Source: a virus
Strand: one strand, 5' to 3'
DNA length: 31,809 nucleotides
Virus record (IMG/VR): IMGVR_UViG_3300045988_016297
The position numbers and the translations under genes were made by a program. Below are positions 8,862-29,416 of the stretch, piece after piece. Under the pieces are notes generated by a model. The model saw nothing but the letters and a program-made list of their open reading frames with translations, was not told where the DNA came from and ran no database searches. Numbering within the stretch: the first letter of the stretch is position 1; every line of letters starts with the position of its first letter.

Positions 8862-9424
8862 CTAGAATGAGTCAAAATCTGACTGTGTGGCCTTGCGTGT
8901 CTCTGATTTGTTTTCAGTACGCAAATTCACATAATCTGTTTGGTAATCTAGAGCCATTCCAATAGAAATGTGCTTCAGATCATCAATTGTAAGCCCGGTC
9001 TCTTTACAGCAAGAAAGGTAGGATTCTACTGTAAAGATTTCATCACTGGCTGATTCTGACTCATCTGGTTTTTTTTTGATGTCATCGTGTCGTTGATCAT
9101 TTCCATTAGAATTGGAGCGATGTCCTGTAATGGAAATTCCTCCATCTCCATGAAAAATTGTTCATAAGGCTTGATGTGTGGATTCCCTGATTTAACGAAA
9201 ACCCAAAACAAGCGATTGAAGAAGGTCATGTCAAAGTTGGCCAGCATGTTGATGTCAACTTCATTGTTGCCATTCTCAGCCATTGCCATGATATTTTGGT
9301 TTGAGAGCATTCCAAATAAATCTTGGAAGAAATCTTTCCCAAACTCACTCTTATAAGCGATAGGAGTGTAAGCATTGGTTACAAGCTCATACTCCTTTTC
9401 ACTAATGATCACACTCTTACGCAT
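8862..9424 (-). CDS. Tail assembly chaperone fusion (gpGT-like) made by a programmed -1 frameshift
   Basis: After the A9 run, the -1 frame stays open: ...KKKPDESESASDEIFTVESYLSCCKETGLTIDDLKHISIGMALDYQTDYVNLRTENKSETRKATQSDFDSF, ending at a TAG at 8862-8864. This fills the otherwise non-coding gap before TMP. Confidence 0.75.
9026..9424 (-). CDS. Tail assembly chaperone (gpG-like, 0-frame product)
   Basis: 132-aa ORF between the major tail protein and TMP. GGAGG RBS 6 nt upstream of the ATG. It contains the slippery run near its 3' end. Confidence 0.85.
   Translation of the reverse strand: MRKSVIISEKEYELVTNAYTPIAYKSEFGKDFFQDLFGMLSNQNIMAMAENGNNEVDINMLANFDMTFFNRLFWVFVKSGNPHIKPYEQFFMEMEEFPLQDIAPILMEMINDTMTSKKNQMSQNQPVMKSLQ
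9069..9077 (-). promoter_or_regulatory. Slippery sequence for the G/GT -1 ribosomal frameshift (A9 run, ...ACA UCA AAA AAA AAC C...)
   Basis: Nine consecutive T on the plus strand (A on the mRNA) sit 13 codons before the 0-frame stop. The -1 frame is open for about 70 codons beyond it. Confidence 0.7.
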
Positions 9425-14534: not shown

Positions 14535-16310
14535 TTAATCAAAGTAAGCCATCACATTCTTATTCTTACCAAGGTTAGAAAGCGCCTGAATACAAGCGAA
14601 AACACTCGCATCAAACAAGTCAATTCTTGCTGTACCGCCATCCCCGTCCAATTTCTCATACTGGACAGCATCATCTACTTTCTCAATGGCTCTGACATTG
14701 CTGACACAATACTCATAAGCGTCCGAATGCACATAATAGAATTCTTTATTCTTCACTTTCAATTCAATTCTTCTGAATCCCTCTGATTTCAAATAGAATA
14801 GCTGAGGCTGGTCAATCATTTTGAATTTAGCTTGCTTCATTTTTAGCATGAACTCTCTACCAAATTTCCTGTCCATACCGACAGCAGCAATTTTGAAGCC
14901 CTTCTTTCTCATCTCTATGAACCATTTAACAATGTCATCATAGAGGACTGTTGGAGTGTTGCTCATAGTCAGCCATCCATCTGATTGCCACCCAAAAAGT
15001 GGGATGCCATCATCATTGGCTTTCTTTTGAGCATTGACACGAGGGAAGAAAGCGTGTGTGATACAAATATCAACATCTTTTTCCCCGTCATTGTACACAC
15101 CATAAAGAGCAGCAGCGGTCAAGTCATGCAGCCTTGAAAGGTCAGCCCCTCCATACCATCGAATAGGAAGCCTTGCAAGCTCCTCAATAGTCCAGTCATA
15201 ACAGTCATCACTAGCAATAAACTCATCAGGATTGAAATAAGCGTTCATTGAGTTGGTGAAGACATTCAGTGTCTTATTGAAGAACTCATTCCTAGTCTGT
15301 GGATCATTCAATGCCTGTTCTGCTTCAGCTCTCAAAGCAGGCATGGACACCGTGACACCCCAAGACGGATTTGCCATCTTCAAAACATTATCATCAAGAT
15401 AGTCACCAACATCGCCATCCGTTGTCTGATTGGCTTTACAAATAAAGATAAATAAAGCCTCATCCTGTACCAACTGCTTAAGCACTTTCTGACAGTATTT
15501 CAAACGGTTAGCAAGAAATCCAGTGGGAATATCACCAGCAGTTGAGATAACAAAAAGCATACTGTTTCGGTATGCTGACATTGTTTTCTTCATAAGACCA
15601 TACTTCTTACTGTTCCTCATCGTGTGAGCTTCATCAATGACCGTGACATTTCCATTGAGAGAGTCCAAACGGCTTTCATCGTTGGCCAAAGCCTGAATAT
15701 AGAATGACCCATCATCTCCAAAATTAGCTGTGATAGAGTGTTCTTGGTTATTGTCTTTGATACGGATAGATTTGTCATTCCATCGTTCTACGTTGAACTT
15801 GATGAAATTAAAGGCTTCCAGCGCTTGCTTGACAGAGTTGGCTACGATATAGCATTTTGAACCACTATCAGCATCCAAAATCTGATAAAGCAGAGCAATA
15901 GCAGCAGTAAAACTGGTCTTGCCGTTTTTCCGTGCCAGCATTATCAAGGCTTCCTTAAATCTACGCTCATTCGTACCAGCGTGATAGAACCCAAAGAGAT
16001 TGACAACTGTGAAATGTTGCCACGGTTGCAAAATCAAAGGCTTATTACGGATAGACATGGCAAACATGTCATCTCCTTGTTGATGAACAATAGAGTTCTC
16101 AATGAAGTGAACTGCAAAATCAACTATATCCTCATCAAGCTCATATGCTGGATTTTCTAAATCCCTCAAAAAGCGTTCAGCAGCCAAAATCCGTTCTTCG
16201 TTATGTTCCTCTTGATAGTTCAGGACATAACCAACATAGGCTTTAGCTTTTCCAAGATTGGTTGTAGCGTGGCGAAAATCGGCAAAACGTTTTTCAAAGT
16301 CTTTATCCAT
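14535..16310 (-). CDS. terL: Terminase large subunit (Terminase_1 type)
   Basis: 591 aa. It has a Walker-A-like ARKNGKTS motif and the typical C-terminal nuclease region. It overlaps the terS 3' end. Confidence 0.93.
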
Positions 16311-16692
16311 CTTTCACTCGCCTCTTTTTCAGTTCATTTTTAAACTTCAGAACCTCTGTGAGAACTGATCCATTATCTTGCTCTACCACTTCACCCAATG
16401 ATTTAGGATTCATCATCAGTTGATTGGAATAGCTGAGTATGTCTTTCCGTAGAATTTCCATCGCTGTCAGGATGGGGACCTTACGTTCATTCTCAGCTCC
16501 TGCCTTGTTCACATAGACATCTGTGACAGGATAGCCCATGTCAGCATAATTCTGAGCAAGTTTCTGATACTGATAGAGCATACCTGCAAAGATATCAATG
16601 ATCATGTCAAATTCTTTGCGATAGGTTCCAAGCTCTTTCATCTGTTTGATGATTTTTGACTTTATTGATTTAGCTGTTATTGGTTTTGCCAA
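16303..16692 (-). CDS. terS: Terminase small subunit (P27 family)
   Basis: 129 aa. It uses a TTG start 8 nt after a strong GGAAGGAGG RBS. It lies between the cos region and terL, downstream of HNH, which is the typical cos/HNH packaging trio. Confidence 0.85.
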
Positions 16693-16715
16693 AAACTAGG
16701 CCTCCTTCCTGAAAT

Positions 16716-16862
16716 CCCTTTAGTTTTTATCCCCTTTTTGTCTGGAGGCCCCCGACTTGGAAAAAGTTCCCTTCACCGGTTCCCAGACGCTTTAAAAAAA
16801 TTTTTTTCGATGGGGGGGATAATCGAAAAAATCAAAAATTGAAAAATTGAAAAATTCGATTT
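16716..16862. other. Putative cos / terminase recognition region
   Basis: Non-coding gap between HNH and terS. A locally GC-rich core (tctggaggcccccgacttgg...ccggttcccagacgc, with GTCTGG/CCAGAC inverted) sits in an AT-rich genome. There is an A7T7 palindrome at 16794-16807. A 10-bp inverted repeat, TTTTTTCGAT/ATCGAAAAAA, flanks a G7 run at 16802-16831. Three tandem (G/C)AAAAATT units lie at 16832-16856. Confidence 0.6.
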
Positions 16863-17195
16863 TTACAAAATTTCGTTTTTTTGATTTTTGTAAAAATTCA
16901 AAAATTCCTTTTTTCGTTTCTTTTGCCAAAAAATTCCTTGACCAATAACTTTATCATTTGTTCTGTCATGAAAAGTATTGTGTCGCTTGTTAGTTAGAGG
17001 CAAGCAATTCCATTCTTGAAATTCTAGCTCAGGAAATTCTGACACAGGAAAAATATGGTGAACCATTTCAGCCGGTTCTGATATTCCATATCTCAAACTC
17101 TCTTGACATAGATAATTATATTTTCTTAGAATCTTATCCCGGAACTTCTCCCACTTCTTTGTCTTCAAAGAAGGTCTGACAATTTTGTTATACAT
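16863..17195 (-). CDS. HNH endonuclease (packaging-associated)
   Basis: 110 aa with ..MVHHIFPVSEFPE...NCLPLTNKRHNTFH.. (H-N-H). GAGGAGG RBS. It lies immediately upstream of cos/terS. Confidence 0.88.
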   Translation of the reverse strand: MYNKIVRPSLKTKKWEKFRDKILRKYNYLCQESLRYGISEPAEMVHHIFPVSEFPELEFQEWNCLPLTNKRHNTFHDRTNDKVIGQGIFWQKKRKKEFLNFYKNQKNEIL

Positions 17196-17208: not shown

Positions 17209-17242
17209 CACAAAAAGGACAGACCAAACTAGTTGGCTGTCC
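17209..17242 (-). terminator. Rho-independent terminator, 14 nt upstream of the HNH start codon and abutting its RBS
   Basis: The minus-strand RNA reads GGACAGCCAACUAGUUUGGUCUGUCC. That forms 6 bp plus 4 bp with a single-U bulge and a 5-nt loop, followed by UUUUUGUGUG. Confidence 0.75.
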
Positions 17243-17265
17243 CCCTCATACTCGAAAGCTATGCT

Positions 17266-17311
17266 ATCATAATATTTTATTTTATGTAAGAAAACAAGAG
17301 CTTATTTTCTC
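17266..17311 (-). promoter_or_regulatory. Left copy of the duplicated hairpin + promoter element (putative late promoter)
   Basis: 38/46 identical to 19164-19209 with no gaps. On the minus strand: inverted repeat GAGAAAA-N10-TTTTCTT, then -35 TTGTTT (17292-17297), a 17-nt spacer and -10 TATTAT (17269-17274). Confidence 0.55.
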
Positions 17312-17316
17312 ATCTT

Positions 17317-17604
17317 TCAATCTGTCTTAAAATTATCACCAATCTTAAAATGTTCAAAATCTTTTTTGCTCACCTTAAAATCTTCCTCAATAGTTTTGTT
17401 TCCTGATTTTCCTTTAACGGTTATAAAATATTTTCTATCGGTTTCCATTGGAACTAGCACCGTTGTCTTTCCAGATGAAATTGGCATCAATATCATTTTT
17501 GGTTCTTCGATATATTTATCAGTGATGGTTCCACTTGAAATCTTATGGCATGATGCTAGTAATATTCCAAAAGCTAAAATACATAAAATTTTAAAATACC
17601 GCAT
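17317..17604 (-). CDS. Small lipoprotein (95 aa precursor)
   Basis: MRYFKILCILAFGILLASC: a signal peptide with an L-A-S-C lipobox. ATG at 17604 with GAGGAA upstream; the track's first M is a GTG. It is the last gene before the terminator. Confidence 0.75.
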   Translation of the reverse strand: MRYFKILCILAFGILLASCHKISSGTITDKYIEEPKMILMPISSGKTTVLVPMETDRKYFITVKGKSGNKTIEEDFKVSKKDFEHFKIGDNFKTD

Positions 17605-17798
17605 CACTCTGCTTCCTCAGTTTCTTCAATGATGAATGCTAATAATTCTCTAGGGTTAATATAGAGGTTGTTAATACGCATTAGATGGCCATCATTAAAC
17701 TGGCTAGCTAAACGGTCAATATCTGATTGTTTCACACCAAAAGACTCAGCGGTCTTATTGTTTGTTAAACGAAAAATGATTTTATTTATAGCCATCAT
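17604..17798 (-). CDS. Hypothetical protein (64 aa)
   Basis: ATGA-coupled to the upstream gene. GAGGAG RBS. No recognisable motif. Confidence 0.65.
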   Translation of the reverse strand: MMAINKIIFRLTNNKTAESFGVKQSDIDRLASQFNDGHLMRINNLYINPRELLAFIIEETEEAE

Positions 17799-18316
17799 TC
17801 TATCTCCTCTATTTCAATTCCTTCACAATCAAAGACCCAACCAAACCCGGATTCTTCTAATTGCCATTTTGTAAGTCTTGAAAAGATTCTGGTGTCACCA
17901 AAAAAGATTGTGTCTTCATCAGGATTTCTCAAGAGGTATTGTCCAGATGATTTTAATTTTATTTTATAGCACTTTTCTTCTTCTACATCATATCCGAACT
18001 GTAACATATTAATTAGTGTTCTGATAGGATTTTGTGTCTCTCCAAACCATATTTCGAATTCACTGAATTCGGTTATTGAGGCGATTCTTCCGCCTGATAC
18101 AACAACTTGACAAATGCTTTTATCTAAATCATGTTTATGTTCCTCAAACCATTTTGCAACATATCGTTTCACAGTTGGTTTGAATCCTGTGTAAATCATG
18201 GACTCCGGAATTGAAACGGTAAGTCTGTTTTCCAGTTGAACTACAGACCTATCATCTCTCTTGTCATTTTTATCTTTCCCGAAAACCTTCACTTTTATTA
18301 TTCCATCTTTTAGCAT
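17795..18316 (-). CDS. DUF1642-like phage protein (paralog 1, intact)
   Basis: The likely start is the ATG at 18316 (MLKDGIIKV), after GAGGGGGAG. It shares ...P I(R/K) T L I N M (L/K) Q F G Y ...EK.Y... and a C-terminal ..GFGWVFDC.GIE.EE.E with the 20505-21031 locus. Confidence 0.7.
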   Translation of the reverse strand: MLKDGIIKVKVFGKDKNDKRDDRSVVQLENRLTVSIPESMIYTGFKPTVKRYVAKWFEEHKHDLDKSICQVVVSGGRIASITEFSEFEIWFGETQNPIRTLINMLQFGYDVEEEKCYKIKLKSSGQYLLRNPDEDTIFFGDTRIFSRLTKWQLEESGFGWVFDCEGIEIEEIE

Positions 18317-18456
18317 GTTTCTCCCCCTCACTTTCACATATCTTATATTTTGTTAAGCTCGCCTTGTTTCTGAAATCCTTTTAGGATATAGCTTTCATTC
18401 GTTTCTCTTTTTCTAGCTTATGCCTAACTCATTATGTTAATGTCAAAATTATAAAA

Positions 18457-18999
18457 TTAAATAACAAAGTTTCTTAAAGCATCATCTAGTTCAGCTTGTT
18501 CAATTCCAATATATCTCAGCGTTATGGCTGGAGATGAGTGATTGAACATCTTCTGTAGTGTGCCTACGTCCTTTGTTTTATTGTAGTATTTGTATCCAAA
18601 TGTTTTGCGCATTGTATGAGTTCCCACATTGTCAATGCCCAATTCTTCAGCAGCTTCATGGATGATCTGGTAGGCTCGTTCACGAGTGATGGCCTTGTTT
18701 CCTCCTTGCCTGCTCTTGAATAAGAAATGATGGAATGGCTTCCCTTCAACATACTTTCTCATTTCTCGTTTCAGTTCTTTCGTCATTCTACGGGAAATCT
18801 GTTTGCCAGTCTTTCTCTCTCGTAGTTTGATGTGCCATCCTTGAACATCTTTGACTTTGAGTGTGAGGATATCACCAACACGCAAGCCTGTATTGAGACC
18901 AGTGATGAATAGCATGTAATACATTTCATTCCATTCTCTCAGATAGTCTTTCATCGCTTGAATGTCATCTGTGTCTTTAATGGGTGAGACCTCTTCCAT
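18457..18999 (-). CDS. Short tyrosine recombinase (catalytic domain only, about 180 aa)
   Basis: All catalytic signature residues can be placed: R in GLRVGD, K in ERKTGK, H-x-x-R in THTMRKT, H in FNHSS and Y in TLRYIG. Only about 25 aa precede the catalytic domain, so there is no core-binding or arm-binding domain. The likely start is the ATG at 18999 (MEEVSPIK), after GAGGGGG; the track's start at 19035 is less likely. Confidence 0.8.
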   Translation of the reverse strand: MEEVSPIKDTDDIQAMKDYLREWNEMYYMLFITGLNTGLRVGDILTLKVKDVQGWHIKLRERKTGKQISRRMTKELKREMRKYVEGKPFHHFLFKSRQGGNKAITRERAYQIIHEAAEELGIDNVGTHTMRKTFGYKYYNKTKDVGTLQKMFNHSSPAITLRYIGIEQAELDDALRNFVI

Positions 19000-19041
19000 A
19001 CGGTTCCCCCTCTCTATATTAAAATTGATTTTCATAAGGAA

Positions 19042-19113
19042 TTGGGAGTGCAGGAATCGAACCTACTCCTACTGTTTTCCGTCAGTACGCTCTACCATTT
19101 GAGCTAACTCCCT
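19042..19113 (-). tRNA. tRNA-like element with a non-canonical anticodon arm (possible pseudo-tRNA or specialised tRNA)
   Basis: The minus strand reads (A)GGGAGT-TA-GCTC-AAATGGTA-GAGC-G-TACTG-ACGGAAAA-CAGTA-GGA-GTAGG-TTCGATT-CCTGC-ACTCCC(A)-A. The D arm and the T arm (GGTTCGATTCC) are canonical. The anticodon stem closes an 8-nt loop lacking U33, the variable region is only 3 nt, and the acceptor stem is 6 bp or 7 bp with an A:A 1:72 mismatch. No CCA is encoded. Confidence 0.5.
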
Positions 19114-19163
19114 AACAACTATTAGGAGACCCTCTCATCCATGATTTGATTATCATGAACAAG

Positions 19164-19209
19164 ATTATAGTATTTTATTTTGTGTGAGAATACAATAACT
19201 TATATTCTC
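19164..19209 (-). promoter_or_regulatory. Right copy of the duplicated hairpin + promoter element
   Basis: It starts 4 nt after the arpU-like stop codon. On the minus strand: inverted repeat GAGAATA-N10-TATTCTC (19186-19192 / 19203-19209), then -35 TTGTAT (19190-19195), a 17-nt spacer and -10 TACTAT (19167-19172). A TATAAT at 19164-19169 overlaps the -10. Confidence 0.55.
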
Positions 19210-19212
19210 AAT

Positions 19213-19617
19213 TTATAGTACACCTTTCATTCTGGCATACGTTTCCAAAATGCCAGCACGCTTGCGGTAAATTGTAGCGTTGCTAACAAATTGCTTTTCT
19301 GCAATTTCTTCCCAATCAAGATTTGCTTGTCCCCATCTTAGGTAGAATATATCAAGCTGTTCCCATGTCAGTTGCTTCTTAAATGATTCAACAGTTTCTT
19401 TGAACAGCTCAAGATTCTTCAAAGTCACATCAGTAGCAAATTTCATCACTGTGTTTTCTGTTGGTTTGCTGATTCCTGATTTTCCTCCCCCAACTAGATC
19501 ATCACCGTTCTTTGCCATCAATTCTGCTTTGCGTGTCCAGATTGCCCGGTCAATTCCACGAAAATTGAATAATTCTTGGTCAAGGTTAAGCAATTCTCTA
19601 TTGTTTAATTTTTTCAT
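19213..19617 (-). CDS. ArpU/RinA-family late transcriptional regulator
   Basis: 134 aa. It has a C-terminal sigma-region-4-like HTH (..FVSNATIYRKRAGILETYARM..). Its position as the last regulatory gene before the packaging module is typical of Gram-positive phage late activators. Confidence 0.75.
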   Translation of the reverse strand: MKKLNNRELLNLDQELFNFRGIDRAIWTRKAELMAKNGDDLVGGGKSGISKPTENTVMKFATDVTLKNLELFKETVESFKKQLTWEQLDIFYLRWGQANLDWEEIAEKQFVSNATIYRKRAGILETYARMKGVL

Positions 19618-28312: not shown

Positions 28313-29416
28313 ATGATCAAAAAATATAAAAAAGGCGATGGTTTCGCCTACTATTTTAAAGCCTATCATGGAATTGATCCTTTGACTGGCAAGAAGATTA
28401 TAACTCTTAGGCGTGGTTTTAAAACCGAACGTGAAGCTAGACTTGCTGAAGCTAAGTGTTTGGCTGATTATGAGAAGAAAACCTTTAGAAGCAGAAATAC
28501 AACTACTACTTTCAAACAGGTATATGAAACTTGGAAAGAGCATTATAGAAATACAGTTAAAGAATCTACCTATGTTAGCCAAATTGACAAAGCTGACAGA
28601 CTTATTATCCCTCATTTTGGAGATAAGCCCATAAATAAAATTACTCTATCTATGTGCCAAGCTCAGGTCAATAAATGGGCTGAGGATTATAAGAGATTTT
28701 TTGGGATCATCAGCATTGCTAATCAGATATTTGATTATGCAATATCTATGGAATTAATTGATAGCAATCCAATGAGAAAAACTCTAAAACCAAAAAGAAC
28801 AAAGAAAGATAAGGAAGAGCTTGAACAATTCTATAATAAAGAAGAACTAAAAACTTTTTTCGAAATGGTCCAGGAACTTGATGATATAGAAATGCTCACT
28901 TTCTTCCGTTTATTGGCTTTCACAGGAATGAGGAAGAACGAAGTAGGCGCATTAAGATGGACTGATATTGACTTAGAGAGTGGGCAACTAAAAGTTAATC
29001 AAACACTAGCAAAGGGAGAAAACAATAAAATCATATTTCAAACACCGAAAACGAAAAAAAGCCAGCGAACAATATCGCTGGATCCAAAGACTATTGATAT
29101 TTTGAAAGATTGGCACAAATACAGTACAAAAGGCTTATTATTTAAAAATGAAACAGGCAGCCCTAAAAGTATTGTGCATGTCAATAACTTGCTGAACCGA
29201 GTTTGGAGAAGGTACCCTGATTTCAAGCGTATCACTCCTCATGGATTCAGGCATACACATTGCTCCCTACTGTTTGAGGCTGGAGCAACTATCAAAGAGG
29301 TCCAGGAACGACTAGGACATGAAAATATACAAACAACGATGGACATATATGCTCATGTAACCCAAAAAGCAAAAAATGAAGTTGCTGACAAATTTGCTTC
29401 CTACATTGGTTTTTAG
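28313..29416 (+). CDS. int: Tyrosine integrase (full length, 367 aa)
   Basis: It has an N-terminal arm-binding-type region (KKGDGFAYYFKAY..DPLTGKK), a SAM-like core-binding region and a catalytic domain (..TGMRKNE.., ..HGFRHTH.., ..LGHENIQTTMDIYAHV). It is adjacent to the attP-like repeats. Confidence 0.92.
   Translation: MIKKYKKGDGFAYYFKAYHGIDPLTGKKIITLRRGFKTEREARLAEAKCLADYEKKTFRSRNTTTTFKQVYETWKEHYRNTVKESTYVSQIDKADRLIIPHFGDKPINKITLSMCQAQVNKWAEDYKRFFGIISIANQIFDYAISMELIDSNPMRKTLKPKRTKKDKEELEQFYNKEELKTFFEMVQELDDIEMLTFFRLLAFTGMRKNEVGALRWTDIDLESGQLKVNQTLAKGENNKIIFQTPKTKKSQRTISLDPKTIDILKDWHKYSTKGLLFKNETGSPKSIVHVNNLLNRVWRRYPDFKRITPHGFRHTHCSLLFEAGATIKEVQERLGHENIQTTMDIYAHVTQKAKNEVADKFASYIGF

Follow-up and report, generated by a model that had tools for sequence, protein, structure and literature searches.

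We analyzed a 31,809-nt stretch of DNA from a Streptococcus phage, IMG/VR record IMGVR_UViG_3300045988_016297 (hereafter, the window), whose late region contains two copies of a 47-bp repeat. We consider it likely that each repeat is a late promoter combined with a palindromic operator of the late transcriptional activator (Ltr) encoded next to the first copy, and that duplication of this promoter has created two late units. An initial annotation of this DNA had proposed, as one of two explanations, that the late promoter was duplicated so that the interposed genes are co-expressed with the late genes; this proposal is supported by the anatomy of the repeats, their conservation in approximately 90 loci, and the fact that the palindrome class follows the activator. 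The Ltr gene ends just 2 nt ahead of the upstream copy; its product most likely binds the palindrome, and accumulation of Ltr would switch on both units together: one comprising a tRNA-like RNA, a short recombinase, and variable small accessory genes, and the other comprising the HNH endonuclease, cos/terS, terL, and morphogenesis genes. Thanks to the downstream copy, the packaging genes would have an activator-dependent start of their own, regardless of what occupies the variable slot.

The whole region from Ltr to terL is encoded on the minus strand, and transcription runs from high to low coordinates. Relative to transcription, we refer to the right, upstream copy as UP and to the left, downstream copy as DN. 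The activator gene and the two copies are as follows.

19213..19617, minus strand: late transcriptional activator gene (Ltr; RinA/Alt-like, 134 aa), matching phrog_36 and the Alt-like phrog_2198
19164..19210, minus strand: UP copy of the element, with 0-4 mismatches across 48 related loci and its geometry kept across classes
Parts of UP: palindrome at 19185-19210 (TGAGAATA-N10-TATTCTCA); TTG at 19193-19195; 12-nt spacer; -10 hexamer TACTAT at 19167-19172
17266..17312, minus strand: DN copy of the element, with 0-4 mismatches in 48 related loci, always directly before the HNH leader
Parts of DN: palindrome at 17287-17312 (TGAGAAAA-N10-TTTTCTTA); TTG at 17295-17297; 12-nt spacer; -10 hexamer TATTAT at 17269-17274

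A repeat search of the window aligned the two copies without gaps at 39 of 47 identical positions, 1,898 bp apart and in direct orientation, which bears out the 46-bp repeat with 38 identities described initially. When a degenerate consensus was built from both copies and searched with up to three mismatches, just these two sites were found in the window, with 0.00 matches expected from 100 shuffles, and no further 47-mer of the window comes within 13 mismatches of either copy. Two additional operator-like matches with 2 mismatches are at chance level, leaving UP and DN as the only copies in the window. As had been noted, both copies are placed right after stop codons: UP begins 2 nt after the TAA of the Ltr gene, and DN begins 4 nt after the TGA of a gene for a 96-aa lipoprotein-like protein. 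The region is AT-rich, and low-complexity sequence of this kind could be invoked to explain the similarity as a coincidence; however, the shuffles and the retention of both copies in approximately 90 relatives lead us to dismiss this explanation altogether.

The initial annotation described a 7-bp inverted repeat in each copy. The inverted repeat is present but longer than stated: in UP it has 8 perfect pairs and can be extended to 11 (one of them G-T) around a 4-nt center, folding at -10.7 kcal/mol as RNA. The DN palindrome of the window has one arm mismatch (TTTTCTT), where most relatives have TTTTCTC. The hexamers are present as described, TTGTAT-17-TACTAT in UP and TTGTTT-17-TATTAT in DN, and the UP -10 hexamer overlaps a TATAAT at 19164-19169. 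The TTG sits within the right arm of the palindrome, so that this arm overlaps a weak -35. A simple sigma-70 promoter scan of the window does not list either copy because the -35 matches at only 3 of 6 positions.

The geometry of the element becomes apparent when relatives are compared. We aligned 17 representative sites from seven sequence classes: the window type (A), the PH10 type (B), two more mitis-group types, the S. suis/S. hillyeri types (D), Javan17 (pac-type), and phi3396 (S. dysgalactiae). The element takes the form of a palindrome, TGAGAAW-N12-WTTCTCA, followed by 12 nt and the -10 hexamer, and the distance from the end of the palindrome to the hexamer is 12 nt at all 17 sites, despite differing spacer sequence. 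Key positions of the sigma-A -10 element are T1, A2, A5, and T6; in the alignment, the hexamer never varies at T1, A2, or T6, and conservation at A5 is 90% or more. In most classes, a -10-like TAGCAT comes immediately after the -10. The -35 is weak or absent (TTG only in the window). Assuming a start 7 nt after the hexamer, the palindrome would span approximately -50 to -25 and be centered approximately 37 bp before that start. Distant phages with a single promoter have their parts in the same order: Javan17 (TGAGAC-N14-TTCTCA, 12 nt to the hexamer), phi3396 (TGGCACTA-N11-TAGTGCCA, 12 nt), and the Lactococcus phage r1t (TTGTCA-N16-TGACAA, 11 nt).

Across the 17 sites, 94% of the palindrome arm cells are complementary, a value reached by none of 500 shuffles, and controls slid along the alignment give 36-67%. 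Two-sided changes occur at four of the eight arm positions (e.g., GAGAA/TTCTC, GAGAC/GTCTC, and GGCAC/GTGCC). Judged from this alignment, the symmetry of the palindrome is under selection. The initial annotation had rested this point on a compensatory swap between the two copies; the swap is real in the window but weak as evidence across relatives, where arm position 7 is unpaired at 5 of the 17 sites, and therefore the stronger evidence for symmetry comes from the other arm positions.

Covarying arms are also what would be seen if the palindrome worked at the RNA level, as a 3'-terminal hairpin that terminates or stabilizes the preceding mRNA, from either the Ltr gene or the last accessory gene, with the adjacent promoter a separate feature. 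Both copies do lie only 2-4 nt past a stop codon, the class A palindromes fold at -10.7 and -7.2 kcal/mol, and an ltr terminator is expected in the intergenic region 3' of ltr. However, the palindrome is not followed by a U-tract, the sequence there being A-rich (CACAAAATAAAA), and its inner part is complementary in the window type only; class B would form just 6 pairs around a 15-nt loop. The noncomplementary inner part and the missing U-tract thus favor a DNA site bound by a dimer over an RNA hairpin. A hairpin role would also leave unexplained why the -10 lies exactly 12 nt away in every class and why both copies change jointly with Ltr, and we regard it as very unlikely.

That joint change is seen in the distribution of the element among relatives. 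A megablast search against GenBank phages matched 41 Streptococcus phages (Javan, IPP, PH10, and OlisA1), and the records whose annotation we inspected are all ordered activator, short "site-specific recombinase," a few small genes, HNH, and terS, the exception being Javan366, which has a frameshifted recombinase remnant. A recombinase-based search of IMG/VR yielded 80 loci, and an HNH-based search limited to one genome per species yielded 30 loci, from S. parasanguinis (the closest, 96-97%), S. oralis, S. mitis, S. infantis, S. suis, S. hillyeri, and Gemella. Altogether, both element copies are present in approximately 90 loci from IMG/VR, GenBank phages, and prophages of at least eight Streptococcus species, with one copy after the Ltr gene and the other before HNH-cos-terS, at distances of 1,227-2,844 bp from each other. 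On the sequences compared, the two-copy layout is the norm for this phage group.

In the 48 window-type loci, UP copies differ from the window UP by 0-4 mismatches and from the window DN by 7-10, and the reverse is true of DN copies. Because these copy-specific differences are kept, the duplication must be old and the copies are maintained as distinct. At the same time, the two copies belong together. Among class B loci, 29 of 30 carry the class B palindrome at both sites, and the remaining one has a hybrid DN copy. Class A UP copies are always paired with GAGAA-type DN copies, and no locus combines a GAGAC UP copy with a fully GAGAA-type DN copy. In class B, Ltr is only 47-50% identical to that of the window, whereas the recombinase between the copies is 96-97% identical; in class D (S. 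suis and S. hillyeri), both palindromes have changed again, though the leader resembles that of class B. As read from these comparisons, the palindrome class follows Ltr, not the recombinase, across at least six classes, and the arms and both copies change together.

The activator itself matches phrog_36 (E=6e-22) and the Alt-like phrog_2198 (E=3.5e-5). Its sole NCBIfam match is RinA (TIGR01636), at 29 bits and thus below the cut-off of 31.9; there is no Pfam match, and no ArpU model was matched in Pfam or NCBIfam. The label "ArpU-like" given initially is therefore not retained, as by profile the protein is nearer to RinA/Alt. It is 36% identical to ORF25 of r1t and to a protein annotated as "transcriptional activator of late promoter," and in all relatives, as in the window, the activator gene directly precedes the packaging and morphogenesis genes.

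In staphylococcal and enterococcal phages, the block of repeats recognized by Ltr comes right after the stop codon of ltr; each Ltr has its own repeats, without which terS is not transcribed, and this intergenic region was inferred to contain a terminator as well (Quiles-Puchalt et al. 2013, PMC3753634). The placement of UP and its specificity match these recognition blocks, which we count in support of the operator reading. Like the Ltr (RinA/ArpU/LtrA-C) systems described there and in PMC3152322, the window has a small activator gene just upstream of the packaging genes, an activator-specific block beginning right after its stop codon, a terminator in the corresponding intergenic region, and a late operon that starts with HNH/terS. 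Unlike them, it has a doubled site, with a tRNA gene, a recombinase gene, and accessory genes between the copies, and an activator that scores below the RinA cut-off and lacks an ArpU match. The Alt protein of lactococcal P335 phages (TP901-1 and r1t) is a second point of comparison. As cited in PMC3152322, Alt reportedly binds repeats at -76 to -32, a position that would overlap the -50 to -25 assigned here to the palindrome. Phage r1t has the same kind of palindrome, hexamer, and leader hairpin; unlike in the window, a single copy is followed directly by HNH, and there is neither recombinase nor tRNA. In light of these systems, the repeat pair is, on the comparative evidence, a real and well-conserved regulatory duplication, which departs from the known Ltr-dependent late promoter by its doubled inverted-repeat site.

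The leaders that follow the promoters raise a question of mechanism. The DN leader of the window folds with a minimum free energy of -26.3 kcal/mol (z=-3.4). A hairpin with a T-run, located after the promoter and ahead of the first ribosome-binding site, was found in 71 of 72 distinct DN leaders (median of -15.4 kcal/mol) and in all 32 UP leaders without a tRNA (median of -12.5 kcal/mol); the leaders of r1t, phi3396, and Javan17 also have a hairpin. Two forms of the window-type DN hairpin exist, GGACAGCCAATCAGTTTGGTCTGTCC and GGACAGACCAAAGAGATTGGCTGTCC, each nearly the reverse complement of the other. The leader hairpin may serve as insulation against read-through, damp expression, or be part of an antitermination step coupled to Ltr. 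The last option can be taken further, as a variant of the promoter-operator reading in which Ltr works by another mechanism: the element would combine a promoter with a site at which Ltr is loaded for processive antitermination, similar to lambda Q, where transcription starts weakly or constitutively and stops at the leader hairpin until Ltr bound to the palindrome modifies RNA polymerase for read-through. On the one hand, the near-universal hairpins and the leader fold of the window speak for this, the TAGCAT after the -10 is reminiscent of a sigma-dependent pause element, and the distance between the RinA site and the transcription start is not explained by simple activation (Ferrer et al. 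2011, PMC3152322). The arrangement also resembles PR'-tR' of lambda, a late promoter with a regulator site and an intrinsic terminator soon after it, ahead of the late genes, although the regulator site here is upstream of and over the -35. On the other hand, Ltr proteins figure in the literature as activators, and reporter fusions show no activity in their absence (PMC3753634); no similarity to Q proteins turned up, with no search aimed at Q homologs made; the class A UP leader has a tRNA in place of the terminator; and the hairpin could equally insulate against read-through or stabilize mRNA. We therefore view a Q-like mechanism as unlikely, though it is the alternative to which we give the most weight. 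If it were true, a duplicated Q-like switch would release two late units together, one of them a swappable accessory slot that begins with an unusual tRNA and the recombinase; it would change the view of how the whole RinA/ArpU/Alt superfamily works and might explain the site-to-start distance of RinA in staphylococcal phages.

Several points weigh against the reading of each repeat as an Ltr-dependent late promoter. A hairpin located approximately 50 nt past the promoter should stop the promoter's own transcripts unless it is leaky or overridden. The weak -35 fits activator dependence but proves nothing, and a generic scan calls no promoters here. Published Ltr sites are direct 7-nt repeats (PMC3753634), and those of RinA are more than 155 bp from the mapped start (PMC3152322), whereas the repeats here are inverted and adjoin the -10. 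Co-variation with Ltr is counted over approximately six independent classes, and because UP is physically linked to ltr and HNH is class-specific as well, phylogenetic confounding is reduced but not removed. Finally, that Ltr binds the palindromes, where transcription starts, and why the promoter was duplicated are inferred from sequence comparison.

The genes between and around the two copies bear on the other explanation offered initially, that of a mobile cassette. In the direction of transcription, the order is a 57-aa open reading frame, Ltr, UP, a tRNA-like gene, a short recombinase gene, a 119-nt noncoding block, three overlapping small genes, DN, a 70-nt leader, HNH, the cos region, terS, and terL. 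Features other than those given above are as follows.

19041..19114, minus strand: tRNA-like gene with an 8-nt anticodon loop, predicted first product of the UP unit
18457..18999, minus strand: short tyrosine recombinase, catalytic domain only, 180 aa (PF00589, phrog_216)
18338..18456, minus strand: conserved noncoding block 3' of the recombinase gene, with boxes CATAAYGAG ... ACAAAATATAAGATATG
17795..18337, minus strand: accessory gene 1, DUF1642, 180 aa (PF07852, E=2e-16; slot family F1)
17604..17798, minus strand: accessory gene 2, 64 aa, overlapping both neighbors by 4 nt (phrog_35353; slot family F5)
17317..17607, minus strand: accessory gene 3, 96 aa, with a lipoprotein-like signal ending in LLASC (phrog_6716; slot family F4)
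17212..17245, minus strand: terminator-like hairpin and T-run of the HNH leader, past the DN promoter and ahead of the ribosome-binding site
16863..17195, minus strand: HNH endonuclease, first gene of the packaging/morphogenesis operon (phrog_119/144, E ~1e-19)
~16700-16860: cos region, between terS and HNH
16303..16692, minus strand: terminase small subunit, terS (PF05119, phrog_361)

The recombinase was described initially as short and catalytically intact, and this is confirmed: it matches PF00589 (E=9e-22, 78 bits, cut-off of 27.1) and phrog_216 (E=1e-75), and the catalytic R, H-x-x-R, H, and Y, by alignment with XerA/XerC-like structures (4a8e and 5hxy), all have their counterparts. Xer and integrase profiles match the catalytic domain only (180 aa), with no N-terminal core-binding (SAM-like) domain. 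The protein is 50% identical end to end to the "integrase" of phi3396. Its open reading frame extends in frame to an ATG at 19035; the true start is probably the ATG at 18999 (180 aa), which is favored because homologs have 180 aa, the phi3396 alignment runs from the first residue, and a ribosome-binding site (GAGAGGGGG) is present. A full-length integrase is encoded elsewhere in the window (28313-29416), and the short protein is therefore a second recombinase. In size and domain content, it is like the short recombinases of the FimB/FimE type (approximately 180-200 aa, catalytic domain only), and it matches the family of tyrosine-type DNA invertases weakly (31.8 bits, cut-off of 222), so that by score it is not a member. 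Unlike in the FimB/FimE systems, no inverted segment is seen here, the block and the repeats having one orientation in all loci. The set of papers searched contained nothing relevant on this short recombinase.

The gene is located between the activator and HNH in every close relative and many distant ones, in phages of S. parasanguinis, S. oralis, S. mitis, S. pneumoniae, S. infantis, S. suis, S. hillyeri, S. dysgalactiae, and Gemella, and no close relative without it was found in GenBank, IMG/VR, or the HNH-based loci. In Javan366 (L087, approximately 1986-2539 in the activator-to-HNH orientation), it is unannotated and was detected by tblastn as two overlapping pieces; this copy is probably a frameshifted pseudogene, so that the gene would have been lost by decay in at least one prophage.

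The number of element copies varies among relatives, and the recombinase is present in all three configurations. Some relatives have UP only (L112-L115 and phi3396), and in these the recombinase and small genes run straight into HNH. Others have DN only; here Ltr and the recombinase gene are separated by a short hairpin (L061-L064) or by only 12 nt (L088). Javan569 of S. suis has two copies. At least one copy is always found between Ltr and HNH. The initial annotation had expected the activator gene to be followed by one element and then by the packaging genes; this order does exist, but solely in the distant Javan17 and in r1t, where the gene after the single element is HNH. Because the single-element order exists in distant phages, an ancient insertion of a recombinase module followed by duplication of the promoter is a possible history. 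Nothing in the sequences compared indicates current mobility of the recombinase module. The one close candidate for an empty site (L092) has an assembly gap, a run of N, beside an integrase remnant and a tmRNA gene, and is uninformative.

It is against this background that the cassette explanation, in which the repeats are attL/attR-like ends of an integrative element or hitchhiker and the recombinase excises a 1.9-kb circle, has to be judged. In its favor, direct repeats bracket a catalytically intact recombinase, each copy contains an inverted repeat as recombinase core sites do, and the gene content between the copies differs among relatives. However, relatives with a single copy keep the recombinase, the palindromes switch class while the recombinase stays nearly identical, and the central 10-nt spacers of the copies are unlike each other (AAGTTATT vs. 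the AAGCTCTT region). The copy-specific differences that persist in the 48 loci speak against it as well. The predicted product of deletion between the repeats (the Ltr end, one element, and the DN-specific leader) had no matches in IMG/VR and a metagenome collection, whereas intact junctions matched 43 and 40 times, respectively, for a total of 83. Moreover, variation is limited to DNA downstream of the recombinase and its conserved flanking block, and the accessory genes overlap, leaving no room for sites at each gene. The claim that the repeats delimit a deletable cassette is therefore not upheld, and we give it hardly any credence. Related schemes fared no better. An invertible switch was rejected, as neither repeat was found in the opposite orientation among 84 loci. 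Inversion of the approximately 120-bp block after the recombinase was rejected as well, since all loci carrying the block have it in one orientation; in PH10-type phages the block is flanked by an 11-bp inverted repeat, the left arm of which is degenerate in the window. Integron-like capture was set aside because the cargo genes overlap by 4 nt (17795/17798 and 17604/17607) and have no recombination sites of their own.

The variable stretch is found only between the conserved block after the recombinase and the DN copy. A census of this slot in 102 loci revealed 15 protein families in 28 arrangements of 0-5 genes, mostly in late orientation; the set seen in the window (DUF1642, the 64-aa protein, and the lipoprotein-like protein) occurs in 7 loci, the window included. 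Homologs of the window accessory genes are also found in early regions of other phages. When the cargo was searched for defense and anti-defense functions, PADLOC gave no match, and Pfam gave DUF1642 and YopX only. The block at 18338-18456, which was also noted in L111 and L120, is more conserved than the neighboring genes and marks the upstream border of the slot; phages of the mitis group, Gemella, and S. dysgalactiae all retain its core motif, A(C/T)A(A/T)ATATAAGATATG. Its predicted RNA fold is not significant (z=-1.2), and an Rfam search of the window gave no match besides the tRNA. The block is the best candidate for the DNA target of the recombinase or, alternatively, for a promoter or leader of the accessory genes. 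Like known hotspots of morons and other accessory genes, the slot is bounded by conserved sequence and holds interchangeable small genes in one orientation; unlike them, it is located inside the late region, between two late-promoter copies and beside a conserved recombinase gene.

The tRNA-like element recognized initially is confirmed by Rfam (40.4 bits, cut-off of 29) and by ARAGORN, which reports an 8-nt anticodon loop with anticodon "ggaa." The loop, ACGGAAAA, thus departs from the canonical 7-nt loop with U33. Approximately 40 related phage contigs keep the loop [G/A]CGGAAAA. In approximately 17 sister phages, the slot is occupied by a canonical tRNA-Lys(UUU), which shares its acceptor, D, and T arms with the 8-nt-loop gene; the cloverleaf is supported by compensatory changes that relatives show in the anticodon stem and the T stem. 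The 8-nt-loop tRNA may decode quadruplets or frameshifts; alternatively, it may be a decoy, or a variant that withstands anticodon nucleases. The set of papers searched held nothing relevant on phage tRNAs with 8-nt loops. The tail-chaperone pair of the window has a -1 frameshift on a run of nine A (9065-9081, minus strand; TCAAAAAAAAACC), and the 132-aa tail-chaperone open reading frame continues for approximately 80 residues in the -1 frame. AAA (Lys) is the commonest of six codons counted in the late genes, at 47 per 1000. The usage of AAA or the shift on the A-run may be related to the tRNA-Lys of the sister phages. A connection between the 8-nt-loop tRNA and the tail-chaperone frameshift was considered and rejected, because nothing ties this ordinary -1 shift on nine A to a GGAA quadruplet.

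Two observations concern the cos region. At 16826-16922, from the 3' end of HNH into the start of cos, there is a cluster of 8-nt repeats (AAAAATTG/AAAAATTC) together with a 37-nt imperfect inverted repeat, which may be binding repeats for the terminase small subunit. In addition, at least nine Streptococcus satellite phages share approximately 60 nt (87-93% identity) with the cos region, at 16722-16784. In the satellite Javan726 (L118), the cos-like stretch comes directly after the satellite's own Ltr-like gene (136 aa), and other satellites encode Ltr-like proteins approximately 33% identical to the window Ltr. The shared stretch suggests that satellites borrow the cos packaging of their helper.

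For oral and pathogenic Streptococcus phages, the palindrome described here provides a candidate operator of the late activator, and it occurs in nature in at least six specificity classes. Through packaging, which they control, the late activators also govern the transfer of phage, satellite, and host DNA. Annotation of many Javan and IPP prophages would benefit, as the "second integrase" and its adjacent variable genes are a standard late region and not a mobile insertion. Three features of this region deserve attention: the terminator that follows nearly every copy of the putative late promoter, the conserved recombinase consisting of the catalytic domain only, and the tRNA with an 8-nt loop beside sister phages that carry tRNA-Lys.

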